Origin: Sandaracinaceae bacterium
GTDB lineage: Bacteria; Myxococcota_A; Polyangia; Polyangiales; Houyiibacteriaceae
Reading direction: 5' to 3'
Assembly (NCBI GenBank): GCA_020633075.1
Contig: JACKEI010000008.1
Coordinates: forward strand, 21,360 to 85,359
Length of the DNA stretch: 64,000 nucleotides
The position numbers and the translations under genes were made by a program. Below, piece by piece: positions 1,806 to 63,309 of the stretch (its first letter is position 1; each line of letters begins with the position of its first letter). A model generated the notes under the pieces. That model saw only the letters and a list, made by a program, of their open reading frames with translations. It was not told the origin of the DNA and searched no databases.

Positions 1806-2713
1806 TCGGCCACTATAGACCGGTCTCTGCCCTCTTGCTTCGCGCGGTAGAGCGCTTGGTCCGCGCGCGCGAGCACGGCCTTGGCGGTCTCACCCGCCTC
1901 GATGACGGGCGCGATGCCACAAGAGAGGGTCTGTGCCCCGGCCGCCGTCGACGCGCTGAGCCGCGCGAACTCGGCGCGCAGGCGCTCCGCGAGCACCAGC
2001 GCTCCCTCCCCGGTCGTCTCGGGCAGGATCACCACGAACTCCTCGCCACCGAAGCGGAACGCGAGATCGCAGGTACGGATACGCGTGCGGAAGGTCTCGC
2101 CCGCCGCGCGCAAGACGTCGTCGCCCACTTCGTGGCCGTGCTCGTCGTTGACACGCTTGAAGTGGTCCGCGTCGAACAGAGCCAGCGACCACGGCCGTCG
2201 ATAGCGCCCACCTTCGGCCACGCGCTGCTGGAGGGCCGTCTCGAGCGCGTGGCGATTGCCGACGCCGGTGAGCGCGTCGACGGTGGCCTGCCGGTGCAGC
2301 GCCTCCGTCAGCCGCCGGATGCGCAGCATGGCGGTCACGCGCACACGCAGATCCAGGGTCGAGATGGGCTTCACCAAGAAGTCGTCCCCCCCCGCCTCCA
2401 GCGCCTTCTGCCTGGCCTGGTCGTCCGCACGGCCGGTGAGAAACACGATGGGCGTGTAAATGGTCCCGCGGGCGCGCACGAGCCGCGCCAGCTTGAAACC
2501 GTCGACCTTGGGCATGATCAAGTCCAGCAGCACCAGGTCGATGGTGTGGTCATAGGCCTGCAGCGCGCTGCTCCAGTCGTGCGCGACCACGGCCACGTGC
2601 CCCAGCTCCGCGAGCATCTCGGCGACGCGGGCGGTGATGAGCGGTTCGTCGTCGACGATGAGAATGCGCGCCCCTTGCTGATCGCGGGTGGCATCATCCA
2701 TGAGTGGAACCAT
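1802..2713 (-). CDS. Response regulator receiver - GGDEF diguanylate cyclase
   Basis: The receiver domain is ILIVDDEP...LVLLDLIMPKVDG...VFLTG...FLVKP. The GGDEF domain has an intact GGEEF motif, with an RxxD I-site (RTCD) 5 residues upstream. The 563-aa ORF-track entry is a read-through extension. I chose the ATG at 2713 (MVPLMDD...). Confidence 0.9.
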   Translation of the reverse strand: MVPLMDDATRDQQGARILIVDDEPLITARVAEMLAELGHVAVVAHDWSSALQAYDHTIDLVLLDLIMPKVDGFKLARLVRARGTIYTPIVFLTGRADDQARQKALEAGGDDFLVKPISTLDLRVRVTAMLRIRRLTEALHRQATVDALTGVGNRHALETALQQRVAEGGRYRRPWSLALFDADHFKRVNDEHGHEVGDDVLRAAGETFRTRIRTCDLAFRFGGEEFVVILPETTGEGALVLAERLRAEFARLSASTAAGAQTLSCGIAPVIEAGETAKAVLARADQALYRAKQEGRDRSIVAE

Positions 2714-2851
2714 GACCCCGCTTTTCTCATGCGCAGGCGATTCTAGATAGTGTTGCTTGCCAGGCGCGCCGCCGCGCTTGACCGGAGCCTCGCGCAGCCT
2801 CATTCCTGCGCGGCGTCTCTCACCCAGGGCCCTCCACCCCCCACCCCCGCG

Positions 2852-4084
2852 ATGACCGCACCCGAACTCAAAGCCTCCCGACACCTTGCCGACGTCAAAT
2901 ACGAGATCCGCGGGGCGCTGGCGCGGCGTGCCGACGAGCTCGAGCGCGACGGCTACGACATCGTGAAGCTGAACATCGGCAACCCCGGGGCGTTCGGCTT
3001 TCGGATGCCCGACACGATGCGCGTGGCCATGGTGCAGAACCTGCACCAGGCGGACCCCTACTCGCACCAGAAGGGCATCTTCCCGGCGCGTGAGGCCGTG
3101 GTCATGCAGCAGCAAGACCGAGGGATCATGGATGCCTCGGCCGACGACGTGTTCATCGGCAACGGCGTGTCCGAGCTGATCATGATGACCATGCGGGCGC
3201 TGCTGAACCCGGACGACGAGGTGCTGGTCCCCAGCCCGGACTATCCGCTGTGGACGGCCTCGGTGGTCATCCACGGCGCCAAGGCCGTGCACTACCCCTG
3301 CCGCCCCGAGAACGGCTTCGTGCCCGACCCGGCCGAGCTGGCCGCCCTGGTCACGCCGCGCACGCGCGCGATCGTGGTGATCAACCCCAACAACCCCACG
3401 GGCGCGGTCTACCCCCGTGCGGTGCTCACGCAGATCGCGGCGCTCGCGGAGCGCCACCACCTCGTGGTGTGCGCGGACGAGATCTACGACCACATGCTCT
3501 ACGACGACGCGGAGTACATCCCGCTCGCGACGCTGACGGACAAGACGCTCTGCATGACCTTCGGCGGGCTGAGCAAGATCTACCGCGCGTGCGGTCTGCG
3601 CGTGGGCTGGGTCTCGTTCACGGGCGAGAAGTCACGCGCGCGTGAGTACCTGCGCGCCGTGGACCTCCTGGCGAGCCTGCGGCTGTGCGCCAACGTTCCG
3701 GGGCAGTTCGCCGTCCAGACGGCGCTCGGCGGACGGCAGTCCATCGAGGACCTCATCCGGCCGGGGGGGCGCCTCTACGAGACGCGGCGCGCCATCCTCG
3801 AGTCGGTGGCCAAGAGCCCCTACATGTCCGTCGTGGCGCCTGCAGGCTCCATGTACGCGTTCATCCGGGTGGACACCGCGGCCTTCCCCGCAGGCTTCGA
3901 CGACGAGGAGTTCGCGCTCGCGCTGCTGGAGGAGAAGCACGTGCTGGTGGCTCCGGGCACCAGCTTCAACGTGCCCTACAAAGACCACTTCCGCGTGACG
4001 CTGCTGCCGCAACCAGACCAGATGCGCGAGGTGATGGGGCAGATCGACGCGCTCCTGGCCGACATGGCCGCAGAGCAGCGCTAG
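2852..4084 (+). CDS. alaA: Class I/II pyridoxal-phosphate aminotransferase, AlaA-type (glutamate-pyruvate aminotransferase)
   Basis: Collinear along its length with E. coli AlaA as I recall it: KYEIRG, LNIGNP..FGF, GNGVSELI, PSPDYPLWTA, INPNNPTGAVY, DEIYD, GLSK.YR.CG.R.GW, MRLCANVP.Q.A.QTALGG.QSI. The start is the ATG at 2852 (MTAPELK). The upstream part of the ORF is a GC-rich extension. Confidence 0.9.
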   Translation: MTAPELKASRHLADVKYEIRGALARRADELERDGYDIVKLNIGNPGAFGFRMPDTMRVAMVQNLHQADPYSHQKGIFPAREAVVMQQQDRGIMDASADDVFIGNGVSELIMMTMRALLNPDDEVLVPSPDYPLWTASVVIHGAKAVHYPCRPENGFVPDPAELAALVTPRTRAIVVINPNNPTGAVYPRAVLTQIAALAERHHLVVCADEIYDHMLYDDAEYIPLATLTDKTLCMTFGGLSKIYRACGLRVGWVSFTGEKSRAREYLRAVDLLASLRLCANVPGQFAVQTALGGRQSIEDLIRPGGRLYETRRAILESVAKSPYMSVVAPAGSMYAFIRVDTAAFPAGFDDEEFALALLEEKHVLVAPGTSFNVPYKDHFRVTLLPQPDQMREVMGQIDALLADMAAEQR

Positions 4085-6476: not shown

Positions 6477-9400
6477 TCACACCGCGAGCTCGCGCGCCAG
6501 CGTGCGGAGGGCGACGTGCGCCGGCACGCACGCGCGCATGCGCTCACGCGCGGAGGCGTCCGGCACGGCGGCGAGATAGATCTCGAGGCGTTCCAGCCCC
6601 GAGCGCACGGCGACCGCGGCGCCCGTGACGTCCCCCGCCGCCCGCCGCGCCTCGGCCAGCGTGACATCCACGATGGCGTCGCTGCTCTCGGCGACCGCGA
6701 CGGGCACCCTGTCGACCGCGGCGCGCTCCACCAGCGCGAGCGCCTGCTGGACGTGCGCGCGCGCCAGGCACACCCGCGCCTGCCCCGCCAGGGCCAACCC
6801 GCGATGAAACGGGCTCCCCGCGAACCCAGCGGCCGCGGCGTCTGCGCAGCGCTCGGCCTGCTCGACCTGACCCAGCGCCAAGAGCACCTCCGTCAGGTAG
6901 TAGCAGGCGCCGGCAACGACGCTCGCGTGGCCGTGCTCGGCCCCACGCGCCTCCGCGTTCCGCAGCGTGGCGTGCGCGAGCTGCAGGTCGCCGTGCCGCA
7001 GCTGCGCGAGCCCCAGGTTCTGCAGCGCGAAGCCCTCGATCAGCGGAACGCCGAGCTCGGCCGAGTCGTCGACGGCGCGCCGGAGGACGTCCACCGCGCG
7101 CGCGAACTCGCCGACCTCCACCAGCCCGTAGCCCAGCCGCACGCGCTGGTTGCAGGCGTGGCGCAGGTCGCGCGCTTGGTCGTAGGCCTGCACGGCCCGC
7201 TCGGACTCACGCACGTAGGCGACCCAGTCACCGGCCACGTGCGCCCGCGCCGCGAAGGTGGTGTGCAGCCAGGCGGCCACGACGGGCCCGTCCACCCCGA
7301 GCTGGGCGGCGAGCGTGTGGGCGAGCGCGAGGAGGGCGTCCGCGTCTTGCAGGCGGCGCTGCCCGAGCCGCTGATGCGCCCCGCGGCAGAGCGCGATCAG
7401 ACGCAAGAGCGCAGCAGCCTCGTCGACCGCGGGCGTGTGGATGAGCTCCCGCAGCGCAGCGTCGAGCTCGTCGATGGCCCCAGACTGCCCCGCCGCCACG
7501 ATGCAGCACCCCAGCGCCCGGAAGTAGGCCTCGTGCCCGCGGGGCAGGGCCGGCAGGGCCTCGCGCACGTGTGCGAGTGAGGCGGCGTACGCGCCCAGCC
7601 AGCGGTGGGCCTCCGCCGCAACCAGCCGCAGTCGAGCCTGCATTCTCTGACGCTCGGCGTCACTCGGCTCCTGCGCGGCTGCACCCACCAACGCGAGCGC
7701 CCGCGCCACGAGCTCCACGGCCGCGTGGTGGTCCCCCGCCTCGAGGGCGCGTTCGGCCGCCTGCACGAGCGCAGCGCCCGCGCGCAGCGGCTCTCCCGCG
7801 CCCTGGTGGTGCGCGGCCAAGGTCAGCGGGTCGTCGATGCCCTGCTCCAGCAGCCACTCGCCGGCCAGCTGGTGCCCCAGGGTCCGGTCCTCCGCGGTGA
7901 GCGTGGCGTAGGCGGCCTCGCGCGTGAGCTCCTGGCGAAAGCGCCACGTCCACTCCGCGGGCACGTCGCGTTCGTCCACCAGCTCGATGAGCTCTTGCTC
8001 TGCGAGGTGCTCGAGGGTCGCGTCGGGGGCATCGGAGCGACCCAAGAGCCTGCCCACGGCGCCGCCCCAGAAGCGCACGCCGAACACGCTGGCCGCTCGC
8101 AGGACGCGGCGGGCGTCGGTGTCGAGCGACGCGAAGCGCGCTTGGAGCATGGCCAAGACCGTCTCGGGAAGCGCCTGCTGTGGCTTCTCCAGCGCCGAGC
8201 GCAGCATCTCCTCGAGGAAGAAGGGATTGCCGTCCGCGCGCTCGACGATGGACGCAACGACCTCACGCGAGATCGCTCCTCGACCGGCACCTGCGACCTG
8301 CGCCAGCACGCCCGACACGAGGTCCTCGCTGGCGCGCTTGGTCAGCTTGGTCAGGCGCAACACCTGGGGATGCGCGTCCGCCCACAGCGCCGGGGCCATG
8401 GCCTCGAGCTCCGGGCGTCCCACGGCGACGACGACCAGCGGCGCGCTCTCGAGCTGGCGCAACGCGTGGTGCAAGAGCTCACGCGAGGGGTGGTCCCCGT
8501 GCTGGAAGTCGTCCAGTACCAGCACGAGGGGGCCCTGCTGCGTCGCTGCGCGCAGCAGCTGCAGGGCCGCGCCACGGATGGCGTCGGACATGCTGGTAAC
8601 GTCCGTGCGCGCCGCCGCGAGGACCTCGCTGGCCTCGTTGGGAAAGGGGGCGCGCACCATCTCGGCGAGAAAGAAGAGCGCGTTCTGCAGCGCGGCGCCG
8701 GACAGGAAGCGCCCCAAGAACTGCGCGAGCTTGAGCTGCTTCACGGCCACCGGGTCCGCCTCGCGCAGCCCCGCAGCCCGACGCAGGAGGTCACCCATCA
8801 GCCCGTAGGGCGCTCCCCCGCGTGTGGCGTCGGCGCGCCCCTCCCAACGCAGCGGACGCGCGGACCCTGCCCGCGGCGCGCGCTCGTGGGCCGCACATGC
8901 CTCGCGCAGCAGGCGCGTCTTGCCGCTCCCTGCGCCCCCCACTACCACCAGGGCGCGCGCGACGGACTCCTCGGCGCTCTCGCGAAAGAGCGCGGCGAGA
9001 CCTTCGAGCTCACGGCGCCTCCCCACACACGGCACCTCGACACCCAGCAGGCGCCGGCTGGCGGCGCGGTCGACGTGCACGTCCACCAGCTCGAAGCGGT
9101 CCCCCGCGAGCGCGCGACACTCGAAGCGCGGCCCGAGCAGCCCTTCGATGACGGCGTCCACCAGCACGTGAGCCGCCTCTCCGCGCGCCGTGGCCTCGCG
9201 CCCGACGAGCAGCAGGGCCCCTCGGTCGAGGGCCTCCCCCAGCGGGACCACGCTGCTGAGCAGCGATTGCCCGGCCACGACCGCGATGGGCTTGCCCGCC
9301 ACGACGCCCCGCAGCGCCAGCGCGCAGCGCGCAGCACGCTGTGCTTGGTCGGTCGGCAGCTCCGTCGGGAAAGTCGCCACGAGCGCGCCGTCGCCCAAGA

Positions 9401-57116: not shown

Positions 57117-58274
57117 TCAGGCCGAAGCGGCCATCCCGTGGAAGTCCGCTGGGCTGCCAAGGGCGGGACGCTCGGTCACGGCCATGACGTGCTGAACCAG
57201 CTGTCGGTAGTCCGTCGCGCCGTGGCACTCGGGGTCGTATTCAAAGATGCTCTGCTTGGCCGTGGGGGCCTCGCGTAGGCGCGTGTTCACCCGGATGGGC
57301 GGCAGACACTTCTCGCCGAAGTGCTTGCGCAGCGCCTCCACGGCGTCCCGCGCCACACGGTTGCGGGCGTCGTAGAAGGTGGGCAGCACACCCACGATGT
57401 CCACGTCGTGCTTCAAGAGCTCGCGCACGTTGCGCAGCGTCTTCAACACCTGCTTCACGCCCACCAGCGACAGGTAGTCGCACGACACGGGCACGATGAC
57501 GCTGTCCGCGTACACCAGCGCGTTCTGGTTCATGAGCGAGAGGGCCGGCGCGCAGTCCAGCACCACCACGTCATAGGCGTCGCCGAGCGTGCCGAGGCGC
57601 TCGCGCAGCACGCGGTCGCGGCCCGTGCGCTGAGCGAGGTGCAGCTCGGCCGCGGCCAGCGACTCGTTGGACGTGATCACGTCGAGGCCCTTGCGCACCG
57701 GGATGGCGGCCTCTTCGGGGGCCAGACCGTGCACCAGCACGTGGTAGAGGGTCTTCTCGCCGCGGATACCGAGCGACGCGCCAACGTTGCCCTGCCCGTC
57801 CGCGTCCACCAGCAAGACGTTGTAGCCAGCCTCGGCCAGCCCGGCCGCGAGGTTCACGGACGTGGTGGTCTTGCCCGTGCCGCCCTTGTGGTTGAACACC
57901 GCGATGCGACGCACCACACGGGGCGGCGCGATCAGCCCGCTGCCGGTCTCCTGGCGCTCGACCGCCGCGGTGCGGCACTCCGTGGAGCAGTAGTAGCGGC
58001 GCTCGCCGTCGGTGACGGCCGCCTGAAAGGGGTACTCCAGCTGGAAGCTGCGCGCGCACACGTCACACACGCAGCCGGGCTCGCTCGCTGCGGGGCCATG
58101 CCCGTCGTGGTGGTTGCCCGCCCGCTCGGCGTCGACCGCGCCGGAGAGCAGGCGCTGCTGGCAGACCATCGAGCACACGTACACGAACGAGCCAGCTTCC
58201 TCGCGGACCTGGTAGCGAAAGCGCACTTCGAAGTCGCGCTCGCACACGCGACAGACACCATGAGGTGACGACAT
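57117..58274 (-). CDS. ParA/MinD-family P-loop ATPase with two N-terminal TRASH/FCS-type zinc ribbons
   Basis: There are two copies of C-X2-C-X22-C-X3-C: CRVC...VCSMVC and CDVC...YCSTEC. The deviant Walker A is FNHKGGTGKTTT, Walker A' is LLVDADGQGN and Walker B is VVVLDCAP. The start is the ATG at 58274 (MSSPHGV); the 458-aa ORF-track entry is a read-through into the repeat field. Confidence 0.85.
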   Translation of the reverse strand: MSSPHGVCRVCERDFEVRFRYQVREEAGSFVYVCSMVCQQRLLSGAVDAERAGNHHDGHGPAASEPGCVCDVCARSFQLEYPFQAAVTDGERRYYCSTECRTAAVERQETGSGLIAPPRVVRRIAVFNHKGGTGKTTTSVNLAAGLAEAGYNVLLVDADGQGNVGASLGIRGEKTLYHVLVHGLAPEEAAIPVRKGLDVITSNESLAAAELHLAQRTGRDRVLRERLGTLGDAYDVVVLDCAPALSLMNQNALVYADSVIVPVSCDYLSLVGVKQVLKTLRNVRELLKHDVDIVGVLPTFYDARNRVARDAVEALRKHFGEKCLPPIRVNTRLREAPTAKQSIFEYDPECHGATDYRQLVQHVMAVTERPALGSPADFHGMAASA

Positions 58275-58380
58275 GAGTCCTCGTTGCTCCGTTGCAGAGG
58301 CAGTTAATGAAACGCCTCTCTCATCCGGTAGTTCACCCGGGGGGCGCTGGTCAAAAAACCTGCAAGCCCAACTGCGAGAC

Positions 58381-58521
58381 GCCGGCGGGGGGCGGGCCTC
58401 CGCGAGGGCCCGGTCGCGCAGGCGCTCCCTGCGGTGCCTCCGCCCAATTCGGCGTGTCGTTGCACGACACTTGAATTGGGGCCCCCCCGACACCCTTCGC
58501 CGAGGCCCGCCCCCCGCCGGC
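58381..58521. repeat. Palindromic GC-rich element, copy A (141 bp)
   Basis: The terminal arms are a perfect 20-bp inverted repeat: GCCGGCGGGGGGCGGGCCTC at 58381-58400 and its reverse complement at 58502-58521. The core is CCCAATTCGGCG-[GTGTCGT tgc ACGACAC]-TTGAATTGGGGCCCCCCC. Confidence 0.85.
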
Positions 58522-58549
58522 TCTCACCTGAGCCCATTGGTTGCTCGAC

Positions 58550-58676
58550 TGGCCTCGACGGGTGCTCTCCGGGGTCGTTCGTGCTCGGGTGGGGGGACAC
58601 GAGTGGCCTCGACGGGTGCGCTTGGTGCGTGCCGGGCTCGGAGGGCTTGGAGGGCTCGGCTGATGCGCTTGGTGCG
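58550..58676 (+). repeat. Short perfect direct repeats in non-coding DNA
   Basis: TGGCCTCGACGGGTGC occurs at 58550-58565 and 58604-58619. TGCGCTTGGTGCG occurs at 58617-58629 and 58664-58676. GGGCTCG occurs at 58634 and 58652. Confidence 0.8.
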
Positions 58677-58704
58677 CGCGAGGCGGCCCGTGGGCTCGCC
58701 CGAC

Positions 58705-58724
58705 CTCAGCTGAGCTCAGCTGAG
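58705..58724. repeat. Tandem duplication of the self-complementary decamer CTCAGCTGAG
   Basis: CTCAGCTGAGCTCAGCTGAG, read directly. Each unit is its own reverse complement and the period is 10 bp. Confidence 0.85.
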
Positions 58725-58794
58725 CACCCCCACGCGCCCGAGGACACGGACGGGCTCGACCCCGAGCCCCCCGCGCATCCTCCAGGCGCACGCG

Positions 58795-58941
58795 GGAGGG
58801 GGCGCGGGGGCAGGTCCCAGCAAGGGGATTGGGGGGGCCCTAATTCAAGCGTCGCTGCGCGACGCGCCGAATTGGGGGAGGAACCAGAGGGAGCGCCAGC
58901 GCGACCGGCCCCGCCGCGGGACCTGCCCCCGCGCCCCCTCC
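58795..58941. repeat. Palindromic GC-rich element, copy B (147 bp), inverted relative to copy A
   Basis: The terminal arms are a perfect 24-bp inverted repeat: GGAGGGGGCGCGGGGGCAGGTCCC at 58795-58818 and its reverse complement at 58918-58941. The reverse complement of the core reads CCCAATTCGGCG-[GCGTCGC gca GCGACGC]-TTGAATTAGGGCCCCCCC, which is collinear with copy A. Confidence 0.85.
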
Positions 58942-58972
58942 TCACGATCACGCCCGGATCACCCGGTGAGCC

Positions 58973-60876
58973 CTACAGGTCGAGCTCGTCCGCGTCCGCC
59001 TGTTGGGCGCGCTCCATGATGAACTCGTACCGGCTCTGCGGGTCCTTGCCCATCAGCTGGCTGATGACCGTCTCGGCCTCGAGCGCGTCCTCGATGGTCA
59101 CCCGCAGCGCGCGGCGCTGCCGCTTGTCCAGCGTGGTCTCCTTGAGGTCGCTGGCAGGCATCTCGCCCAATCCCTTGAAGCGGCTGATGTCGGGCTTCAC
59201 GTTGCGCGGCAGGCCCTTCAGGATCTTGTCGCGCTGCTGCTCGTCCAGAGCCCAGTAGGTCTCCTTGCCCGCGTCGATGCGGAAGAGGGGCGGCTGCGCC
59301 AGGAAGATGTGCCCGTTGCGGATGAGCGACGGCATCTTGCGGTAGAAGAAGGTCAGCAGCAGCGTGGCGATGTGGTGCCCGTCGCTGTCGGCGTCCATCA
59401 GCAGGAAGACGCGGCCGTAGCGCAGCTTGGTGATGTCGAAGCCCTTGCCGATGCCGGTGCCCAGGGCGCTGACGATGTTCTGCAGCTCCTTGTTGGCCAG
59501 CACCTGCGCGTCCGTGGCACGCTCGGCGTTCAACACCTTGCCGCGCAGCGGCAGGATGGCCTGCGTGCGCCGGTCGCGCGCGGCCTTGGCGTTGCCACCG
59601 GCCGAGTCACCCTCGACCAGGAACAGCTCGCAGTCCGCCGGGTCGGTGCTGGCGCAGTCGCTCAGCTTGCCGGGCAGGTTCAGGCGGTGACTGACCGCCG
59701 TCTTGCGGCTGACCTGCGCGCTGGCGGCGCGGCTGGCTTGACGCGCACGCGCCGAGATGATGATGCGCGCGACGATGGCCTCGGCAGCCGACGAGTTGTT
59801 GTGCAACCACTGCTCGAGGGCCGTGCGCACCGCGTTCTCGATGGGGGCCGTGACCTCGGCGTTGTTCAGGCGGTCCTTGGTCTGCCCCTGGAACTGCGGC
59901 TCGCTCACGTACGCGCTGACCAGCGCCACCACGCCCTCGCGGATGTCCTCCGCGACGATCTTGAGGCCCTTGGGCGCGATGTTGTGCGCGTCCATGTAGC
60001 CACGGATGGCCTTGTTCACGGCCTGCTTGAAGCCGTTCTCGTGCGTGCCGCCGTTGGTGGTGGGGATGCCGTTGGCGTAGCTCTTGATGAGCTCGTCGGT
60101 GCCCTCGGTCCACTGCAGCGCCACCTCGATGCGCGGGTCCCCCTCGCGCTCGTAGGTGAAGGCCACCGGGTGGATGGCGGGCTTCTTGCGCTGCGCCACC
60201 AGCTTGGTGAGGAAGTCCGCGATGCCGTTCGGGTGGTGGAACTCCTCGCGCGTGCCGTCCTTCTCGAAGCGCAGCACGATCTTGAGGCCGCGGTGCAGGT
60301 AGCTGGTGGCCTCCAGGCGCTCGCGGATGCGGTCGGGCTCGAAGGCCCCGCTCTTGCCGAAGATCTGCGGGTCCGGCTTGAAGTAGATCTCGGTGCCCTT
60401 CTTGCGCGCCTCGCCGATCCGCTTGACCGGCGCCTGCGGCACGCCCCGCTCGTACGTCTGGCGGTACTCGCTTCCGTCACGGCAGATGGTGGCCTCGAGG
60501 TGTTCGCTCAGCGCGTTCACCACCGACGAGCCCACGCCGTGCAGACCGCCCGACACCGCGTAGCCCTTGCCGCCGAACTTGCCGCCCGCGTGCAGCGTGC
60601 AGAGGATGAGCTCGAGCGCGCTCTTCTTGAACTTGGGGTGCTTGTCCACCGGGATGCCGCGGCCGTTGTCCGACACGCGCGCGCCCTTCCAGTCCGCGTC
60701 GATGGTGACCTCGATGCGCGAGGCGTGACCGTTGATGGCCTCGTCCACGGAGTTGTCCACGATCTCCCAGAGGAGGTGGTGGTAGCCCGTGCGGTCCGTG
60801 CCGCCGATGTACATGGCCGGGCGCTTGCGCACCGGCTCGAGCCCCTCGAGGACTTCGATCTGATCTGCGGAGTAAC

Positions 60877-60880
<4 letters not shown>
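58973..60880 (-). CDS. Type IIA DNA topoisomerase ATPase (B) subunit, ParE-sized (GyrB/ParE family)
   Basis: The GHKL ATPase motifs are [26 protein letters not shown] and GGLHGVG. The Toprim motifs are [12 protein letters not shown] and [16 protein letters not shown] is also present. At 635 aa it lacks the ~170-aa insert of proteobacterial GyrB. Its ATG overlaps the A-subunit stop (ATGA). Confidence 0.9.

Positions 60881-63309
<2,429 letters not shown>

Follow-up and report, generated by a model that had tools for sequence, protein, structure and literature searches.

What are the two long palindromes that face each other in the spacer between a topoisomerase IV gene and a ParA-like gene of an uncultured myxobacterium? 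The stretch analysed here (64,000 nt of contig JACKEI010000008.1, Sandaracinaceae bacterium, assembly GCA_020633075.1; hereafter the window) is a core-chromosome segment with 70% G+C, in which a first-pass annotation made from the letters alone had picked out two related, inverted palindromic elements of about 145 bp, copies A (58381-58521) and B (58795-58941), and had left open whether they act as terminators or insulators, protein-binding structures, a structured non-coding RNA or a genome repeat. Both elements are real and lie where they had been placed, and they belong to a family that is non-coding, GC-rich and dispersed among unrelated intergenic sites, and in which complementarity is maintained while the sequence changes. 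We think it probable, though well short of certain, that A and B are members of a lineage-specific foldback repeat of the same general kind as repetitive extragenic palindromes (REP), their paired form (REPIN), enterobacterial repetitive intergenic consensus sequences (ERIC) and miniature inverted-repeat transposable elements (MITE), and not regulators specific to this locus; that reading also takes in constraint at the level of DNA, spread by a function supplied in trans or by gene conversion, and a passive barrier role at this site.

Read in opposite directions, A (plus strand) and B (minus strand) align with 80.6% identity across 139 nt (blastn E = 4.5e-24), so that the similarity covers the whole element and extends beyond its core, and no inverted repeat in the 64-kb window is stronger than these two. 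The window contains the core, CCCAATTCGGCG-hairpin-CTTGAATT, twice and no more, with 0 occurrences expected in shuffles, which agrees with the shared core described in the first-pass annotation except that the inner stem of B carries one A·C mismatch (GAATTAGG). An unfiltered covariance-model scan of the window returned A and B only, with everything else at or below 18 bits. In the family orientation B and A reached 131 and 113 bits, and on their reverse strands just 18 and 15 bits, so that the element is asymmetric and the inversion of the two copies is genuine, their 3′ ends facing. The outer arms are perfectly self-complementary over the 20 bp and 24 bp that had been read from the letters (20/20 in A, extendable to 28 nt at 93%; 24/24 in B), and the apical hairpins, GTGTCGT/ACGACAC in A (58454-58460 / 58464-58470) and GCGTCGC/GCGACGC in B, differ at two positions, both compensated. 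In each unit, a hairpin of about 145 nt is preceded by a short 5′ tail (GATCGTGAGG) and followed by some 35-45 nt of 3′ tail, so that the hairpins have the extent originally given but the conserved element continues outside them, by this 5′ tail and by about 40 nt on the 3′ side. The hairpin is predicted to be built of a perfect outer helix of 20-24 bp, a short second helix, an internal loop that is large and asymmetric, an 8-bp stem and an apical hairpin of 6-7 bp, with an invariant block, TCGCGCWGGCGCTC, held in a small branch hairpin on the 5′ side of the internal loop. The parts of the two copies are as follows.

58381-58521, plus strand (family orientation): copy A, type I subfamily, a 141-nt hairpin (covariance model R1, 113.5 bits, E ~1e-18)
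58381-58400, plus strand: outer arm of copy A, 5′ side, pairing over 20/20 bp with 58502-58521
58502-58521, plus strand: outer arm of copy A, 3′ side
58412-58430, plus strand: conserved block GGTCGCGCAGGCGCTCCCT of copy A, in invariant alignment columns, with the small branch hairpin inside
58443-58480, plus strand: core of copy A, stem CCCAATTC / GAATTGGG around GGC, the 7-bp hairpin GTGTCGT-TGC-ACGACAC and TT
58367-58380, plus strand: degenerate 5′ tail CCCAACTGCGAGAC of copy A (compare the family tail GATCGTGAGGAG)
58522-58751, no strand: spacer between the copies, its first ~40 nt being the 3′ tail of copy A, with short direct repeats and a palindrome
58752-58794, minus strand: 3′ tail of copy B, ~43 nt, like the tail of L076a
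58795-58941, minus strand (family orientation, same direction as parE): copy B, type I subfamily, a 147-nt hairpin (covariance model R1, 131.1 bits, E ~5e-22)
58795-58818, minus strand: outer arm of copy B, 3′ side in family orientation, pairing over 24/24 bp with 58918-58941
58918-58941, minus strand: outer arm of copy B, 5′ side in family orientation
58888-58906, minus strand: conserved block of copy B (the plus strand reads AGGGAGCGCCAGCGCGACC)
58839-58876, minus strand: core of copy B, stem CCCAATTC / GAATTAGG with one mismatch, around GCGTCGC-GCA-GCGACGC
58940-58951, minus strand: conserved 5′ tail GTGATCGTGAGG of copy B, overlapping the arm by 2 nt and common to the L033, L034, L125, L076 and L136 copies (numbers with the prefix L denote contigs and loci from other assemblies)

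No sequence of the family is better conserved than the GGTCGCGCAGGCGCTCCCT block, which occurs on the 5′ side only, unpartnered on the 3′ side. A partial extra outer arm (58768-58783, matching 58926-58941 over 16 nt at 88%) lies 11 nt past the copy B hairpin, and the L037 copy is followed by a comparable partial duplication of the arm (~70-130); both may be remnants of tandem or nested copies.

Copies outside the window were sought in two ways. A metagenome scan with an invariant 20-mer of the element interior matched at least 120 loci, from which true members were sorted from chance matches by nhmmer and cmsearch; among the matches listed, the true members are L076, L108, L125 and L136. Relatives of the locus itself were found by ParE and ParA-like protein searches followed by retrieval of the encoding contigs. 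The further copies for which the first-pass annotation had asked to look are thus present in related contigs, and in all the family occupies at least 6 distinct loci across at least 6 assemblies (L076 and L108 come from one metagenome), the hosts among the copies found being an uncultured Polyangiales/Sandaracinaceae-like lineage of Myxococcota. One copy lies ~190 nt upstream of infC (L136 1-100), one upstream of an unannotated open reading frame (ORF) (L108 1-77), two in direct orientation ~960 bp apart on either side of an 84-aa ORF (L125), and two form a convergent pair ~380 bp apart beside a Ser/Thr kinase gene (L076), the apical hairpin of the left copy (L076a) being cut by an insertion sequence of the IS3 family. 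A scan of 185,579 genomes for the exact core (CCCAATTCGGCGN{10,22}CTTGAATT) gave only chance loci, 27 in all, every one within coding sequence and with no hairpin; the source genome is evidently not among the species representatives and the core sequence differs between subfamilies, both of which bear on that result. Metagenome matches L066, L061, L095 and L130 were rejected for sharing the 20-mer motif without the core and arms, and three matches of the conserved 20-mer in viral contigs were all chance. L066 itself holds two near-identical inverted segments of ~130 nt that include the 20-mer (1140-1229, minus, and 3345-3438, plus), and lacking the family core and arms they are a different repeat.

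At the parE/ParA-like site, relatives differ in the element. L033 (ParE 92% identical) has a single element, at 9035-9180 immediately past the parE stop, and lacks a copy at the A position; its arms differ from those of copy B and are still self-complementary, its inner stem reads GAAAAC/GTTTTC where the window has CAATTC/GAATT, and the flank that it shares with the window resumes at GTCCGTGTCC (window 58742-58751). There L037 (ParA-like 88%) carries a copy (1-110), in whose apical hairpin the contig ends; it thus occupies position A. In L034 (ParE 96%) the spacer is 181 bp and a 3′ arm is fused to a 29-nt remnant of the 5′ arm and the second helix; since these 29 nt of element interior are retained, the site is an internal-deletion derivative, and its use as a clean empty site was rejected. 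Relatives whose ParE is 71-74% identical lack the element after parE, where short spacers contain unrelated hairpins, and no copy was found at the ParA-like loci of L028-L031 and L171. In L028-L030 (ParA-like 91%, the closest by that protein) a GH5 cellulase gene (L028 83-1627) stands upstream in place of parE, and homology to the window begins at 58366; because this synteny break lies 15 nt outside the outer arm of copy A, the repeat may mark a rearrangement point. A 21.9-kb locus of GCA_020430765.1 ("MAG: Myxococcales bacterium", MAG denoting a metagenome-assembled genome) is identical to the window across this region.

The copies fall into two subfamilies. Type I (B, A, L076b and L037) has within-group identities of 70-83% and type II (L033, L125a/b, L136 and L108) of 75-93%, against 52-67% between the types. 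B and L033, which occupy the same parE site, are of different types and only 62% identical, whereas L033 and L125b, at different loci, are 90% identical, a pattern that argues for mobility or gene conversion over vertical inheritance at a single locus. Copy A is likewise nearer to L076b (80%) than to B (70%) and is therefore not simply a recent inverted duplicate of B. These comparisons indicate a family that would move, turn over or be homogenised by gene conversion. Of the roles first offered for the elements, a MITE- or REP-like genome repeat is thus the one we favour, on the strength of the copies at unrelated loci, the switch of subfamily at an orthologous site and the absence of the element after parE genes of 71-74% identity.

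The outer arms differ in every copy yet pair perfectly, and the interior block is invariant. Folding was compared with dinucleotide shuffles for four strands, and none of 200 shuffles equalled the native sequence for either RNA (z = -6.1 to -8.7) or DNA (z = -5.7 to -8.0), which sustains the original judgement that the elements are not chance GC-rich symmetry. Copy A has an RNA minimum free energy of -105.7 kcal/mol (z = -8.7; DNA z = -7.95) and copy B of -104.9 kcal/mol on the minus strand and -111.3 kcal/mol on the plus strand (z = -6.1 and -8.5, respectively); in a transcript of the whole spacer, long-range pairing between B and A is predicted to be thermodynamically preferred (-407.8 kcal/mol).

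The retention of pairing despite sequence divergence, first noticed between two copies, holds for nine family members (five full, four cut by contig ends) in a model-guided alignment. Standard pairs filled 94.3% of pair cells, against 78.8% in column shuffles (0/500), a percentage that is somewhat inflated because the alignment was fitted to the structure of the model; 25 of the 51 predicted pairs had both partners altered, and a control in which the partners were shifted by 1-3 columns lowered pairing to 40-53%. RNAalifold applied independently to a plain MAFFT alignment gave 20 compensated pairs. In the outer helix all 19 pairs are intact (100%), 14 of them with both partners altered, and only GC, CG, AU and UA are used. 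The branch hairpin of the conserved 5′ block also covaries between subfamilies (GG..CC vs GC..GC). Away from the outer helix, ~5 events each of variable G·U and of variable A·C mismatch were counted, two of the A·C ones at a bulged arm position. Such strict Watson-Crick pairing without strand bias favours constraint at the DNA level, or templating of one arm by the other, over a transcript of one strand, and on the few sequences in hand it would be a DNA foldback, rather than an RNA from one strand, that is maintained.

How far, then, does the family resemble repeats already described? REPINs are non-coding and intergenic and can form a long hairpin in single-stranded DNA or mRNA. Compensatory changes in their hairpins are common, and they have conserved ends around a variable spacer (PMC3116915). 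The present family resembles REPINs and BIMEs (bacterial interspersed mosaic elements that contain REP) in being non-coding and intergenic, in its long hairpin and compensatory changes, and in occurring as singles, inverted pairs and clusters. It differs from REPINs in its size, ~145-200 nt per unit here compared with ~70-110 nt for an element with REP 16-mers at its ends, and from REP and REPIN alike in that neither a GTAG nor a CGTC tag marks the ends of A and B, where the arm is adjoined by the tail GATCGTGAGG. In the REP/REPIN systems of Pseudomonas and enterobacteria the repeats flank a gene for RAYT, a Y1 HUH transposase; the 64 kb of this genome covered here encode no transposase. With MITEs it shares terminal inverted repeats (perfect over 20 and 24 bp), a length of 141-147 nt and the lack of coding capacity; the terminal repeats of MITEs are normally their conserved, transposase-binding part. 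ERIC (also IRU), Correia (NEMIS), RUP and YPAL elements are MITE-like intergenic repeats of 100-170 bp with imperfect palindromy that are often co-transcribed with genes, and ERIC-type repeats have terminal inverted repeats that close a long imperfect hairpin, are lineage-restricted, and have subfamilies and internal-deletion derivatives. Compared with these four by their general descriptions, our family agrees in size, non-coding nature, intergenic location, arms that close a long hairpin, lineage restriction, subfamilies and the deletion derivative L034, but has no sequence similarity to them, no target-site duplication that we could see, and terminal repeats that differ between copies.

Two more remote kinds were also considered. 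Integron attC sites (57-141 nt) likewise keep a hairpin while their sequence varies, are constrained as single-stranded DNA and have asymmetric unpaired features, and the direct copies flanking a small ORF in L125 add to the resemblance; unlike attC, however, the copies have no RYYYAAC / GTTRRRY core sites at their ends, form inverted pairs (window and L076) and have no integrase nearby. Retron msr-msd regions adjoin a reverse transcriptase gene, and none is found beside any of the copies or elsewhere in the window. Retron, attC, parS and dif were each rejected for missing defining features, and the definitions of REPIN, classical MITE, attC and retron each fail on at least one. Plasmid and phage collections gave no blastn match, and a six-frame pseudo-protein made from B and L033 had no match among 5.8 billion proteins. 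Two internal explanations of the variable arms and of the inverted pair were also rejected: insertion of the element into pre-existing terminator stems, since copies of type II have homologous arms even though their loci differ; and a single mobile B-spacer-A block with 145-bp terminal repeats, because the spacers of the window and L076 are unrelated beyond the ~40-nt tails, with the single copy in L033 and the direct copies in L125 contradicting it further.

Under the foldback-repeat explanation, the constraint would fall on a hairpin in single-stranded DNA or on a cruciform, upheld by arm-to-arm templated repair or gene conversion, and copies would spread or displace each other either by way of an enzyme provided in trans, as for REPINs and MITEs, or by gene conversion between copies. 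Several observations weigh against it, besides the fitting of the alignment to the model. The termini of this family are its most variable part and the interior its most conserved, the reverse of REPINs and MITEs. No transposase, integrase or reverse transcriptase is encoded among the genes of the 64-kb window. Beyond the parE/ParA-like locus, there is no further copy in 63 kb of the window or in ~18 kb of L033. The flanks of the full copies share no direct repeat that would be a target-site duplication, the ends being imprecise and no clean empty site having been obtained; dozens of copies with such duplications had been proposed as the mark of a plain MITE, and the copies found do not present that picture. 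Conserved unpaired blocks and a defined orientation would suit an RNA or a protein-binding site equally well, and the barrier role considered below lacks a U tract anywhere in 58100-59100. Nor was a parent insertion sequence recognised, the IS3 and IS21/Mu-like elements next to L076 having unrelated ends.

The alternative that survives best, although we hold it to be unlikely, is that the copies are a multi-copy structured RNA or an RNA element acting in cis, such as a hairpin for RNase III processing or for stability in untranslated regions, with selection acting on the folded transcript. Strong covariation, conserved blocks in predicted loops and a defined orientation are all what such an element would show; B is co-oriented with parE and begins 31 nt past its stop, and a perfect helix of 20-24 bp has the size of an RNase III substrate. 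The only two consistent G·U pairs, both invariant, flank the apical hairpin in the family orientation, where an internal loop is equally possible. Against this stand the outer helix, devoid of G·U despite 14 covarying positions, and the balance of G·U and A·C elsewhere. Rfam 15 gave no match at the gathering threshold in the window and, even at E ≤ 10, two chance microRNA matches only; the spacer has no sigma-70 consensus promoter, no conserved promoter accompanies the element, and neither a U-tract terminator nor a terminator-like site was found in 58100-59100. Orientation relative to the neighbouring genes is inconsistent, B and L033 running with the upstream gene and A, L037, L076b, L108 and L136 antisense to the downstream gene, and copies at orthologous sites belong to different subfamilies. 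The structured-RNA role raised in the first-pass annotation is for these reasons not the one we favour, the pairing rules of the outer helix, the balanced mismatches and the empty Rfam search being the main ones.

We regard it as improbable that the elements are sites for a DNA-binding protein, either a centromere or operator of the ParA-like system or a nucleoid or topoisomerase site of the kind found in BIMEs (REP/BIME elements bind gyrase and IHF in Escherichia coli). The invariant and partly palindromic block GAGCGCCWGCGCGA is present in all copies, and the elements of the window do lie between the topoisomerase IV genes and the ParA-like gene, as the following lines show.

60877-63309, minus strand: parC
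58973-60880, minus strand: parE (topoisomerase IV B), stop codon at 58973-58975
57117-58274, minus strand: ParA/MinD-type ATPase gene, start at 58272-58274, with a Cys-rich N-terminal extension
58349-58358, minus strand: TTTTTTGACC, context outside the repeat, 22 nt from the outer arm of copy A, probable -35 region of the ParA-like gene

The surroundings were thus correctly read from the start: parE and the ParA-like gene, all on the minus strand, are separated by a spacer of 697 bp, in which the elements bracket short repeats between the stop of the topoisomerase operon and the ParA-like promoter region. Other copies, however, stand beside infC, a kinase gene and other unrelated genes, the ParA-like loci in L028-L031 and L171 have no element, and a protein site would leave 145 nt of maintained hairpin unexplained. 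The promoter points the same way. TTTTTTGACC, ~85 nt upstream of the ParA-like start and followed after 17-18 nt by TA(C/G)(C/G)(C/G)N, is kept in every relative whether the element is present or absent (checked at the same position in L028, L031, L033, L034 and L036-L047); together the two motifs are probably the promoter of the ParA-like operon, which therefore does not depend on copy A. A role tied to the ParA-like gene is accordingly unlikely, its promoter region being conserved in relatives without the element.

Slightly less credible still is descent in place, in which A and B would be terminators or insulators specific to this locus and inherited vertically, A having arisen as a local inverted duplication of B. 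A hairpin directly follows the parE stop in every relative examined, including unrelated ones in distant relatives, and A and B are adjacent and inverted, as this account would have it. It is largely refuted by the family members at unrelated loci in other contigs, and it sits poorly with the greater identity of A to L076b than to B, with the divergence of B and L033 at one site, with the copy at the A position in L037 and with the lack of a U tract. As to termination itself, B resembles an intrinsic terminator in being a stable, GC-rich hairpin 31 nt after a stop codon, at a place where distant relatives have hairpins of unrelated sequence, and departs from one in having no T/U run, in its 145 nt with conserved interior blocks and tails, and in also lying antisense upstream of genes. 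The terminator first suggested is therefore not a canonical intrinsic one, because there is no U tract.

Chance symmetry or similarity in GC-rich sequence, for which only the 70% G+C of the window speaks, is already refuted, since no shuffle folds as well, A and B match with E = 4.5e-24 and rank as the top inverted repeats in 64 kb, and homologous copies exist in other assemblies.

Returning to the foldback repeat, its effect at this locus would most likely be that A and B act as a passive, U-tract-independent transcription barrier and 3′-end stabiliser, which fits B's place 31 nt after the parE stop, A's place 22 nt upstream of the ParA-like -35 region and the unrelated hairpins that distant relatives have after parE; such a barrier would separate the parC-parE operon from the ParA-like operon. 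A bolder proposal, to which we attach a low probability, is that the family is a self-maintaining DNA foldback replicator recognised by its conserved interior, or else a previously undescribed multi-copy structured RNA of ~200 nt in uncultured Polyangiales. In a replicator, the functional part would be the branch hairpin TCGCGCWGGCGCTC together with the CCTCC / GGGGCCCCCCC loops, and not the termini, and each outer arm would be restored with its partner as the template, which would explain why the arms are perfect yet copy-specific and contain no G·U pairs.

Further features of the spacer and of the neighbouring loci were recorded. The 273-bp stretch that separates A and B contains a field of short repeats (58522-58751) comprising GGCCTCGACGGGTGC twice, GCGCTTGGTGCG twice, GGGCTCGGA in 2.9 copies and the palindrome CTCAGCTGAGCTCAGCTGAG, and this sequence is not conserved in relatives or in the L076 pair. 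Relatives instead carry hexanucleotide microsatellites of GTCGTG, GACGGC and CCCACG (L033 9330-9400; first 100-200 nt of L039-L046). Judging from these sequences, the parE/ParA-like intergenic region is evolving very fast. The L125 copies (1-170 and 865-1115) sit in a longer direct duplication of ~150-160 nt with 74% identity that includes the hairpin motif GAGTGCCAGCCCCTCTCGGGCRGGGCAA, and the 84-aa ORF between them has a hydrophobic, lipoprotein-like N terminus and no Pfam match. In L076, a single case, the IS3 element (2126-3439) encodes OrfA with HTH_Tnp_1 and OrfB with rve, has 25-bp terminal repeats and is immediately adjoined by an IS21/Mu-like transposase gene (419-2137); its position in the apical hairpin can be compared with IS1397 and ISKpn1, members of the IS3 family that insert in REP loops in enterobacteria. 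L033 876-2183, which lies ~5 kb upstream of parC and 7 kb from the repeat, encodes a protein with RVT_1 and GIIM domains, the latter marking it as the protein of a group II intron; the window is without it.

In the ParA/MinD-type ATPase, two Cys-rich (CxxC...CxxxC) modules lie within an N-terminal extension of ~115 aa, and a few of its homologues (P0001-P0120) have a precomputed zf-FCS match (PF06467). Its gene is always followed by those for a conserved protein of ~106 aa and a protein of ~395 aa, both without a Pfam match, and the operon is conserved across Polyangiales-like MAGs; in L032, the NCBI call of the ParA-like gene starts 690 nt too late (266 aa). Elsewhere the window holds housekeeping genes: mreB-mreC-pbp2-rodA, metG, genes for a phosphotransferase system and HPr kinase, rpoN, pheA, an SNF2 helicase gene, uvrD and guaB. 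Finally, contigs often end at the parE stop or within the repeat, frequently in the apical hairpin or conserved block (L035 at its end, 3209; L036, L037, L108, L125 and L136 at their starts), which weakly suggests that the element breaks short-read metagenome assemblies.

We found no description of such repeats in the myxobacterial lineage in the searchable literature, which is absence of evidence only. We also caution against reading covariation between two copies alone as a sign of regulatory RNA. Small palindromic repeats such as REP, REPIN, ERIC and MITE shape the boundaries of transcription, the stability of mRNA, rearrangements and the quality of assemblies, and the family described here would account for a seemingly empty spacer of ~700 bp in a core chromosomal region, for the recurrent contig breaks in metagenome assemblies of these organisms and for the synteny break 15 nt from copy A. 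Elements of this kind are well known; what is mildly unusual here is the combination of variable but perfect termini with a conserved interior, which could mean that these repeats are maintained by a different mechanism.

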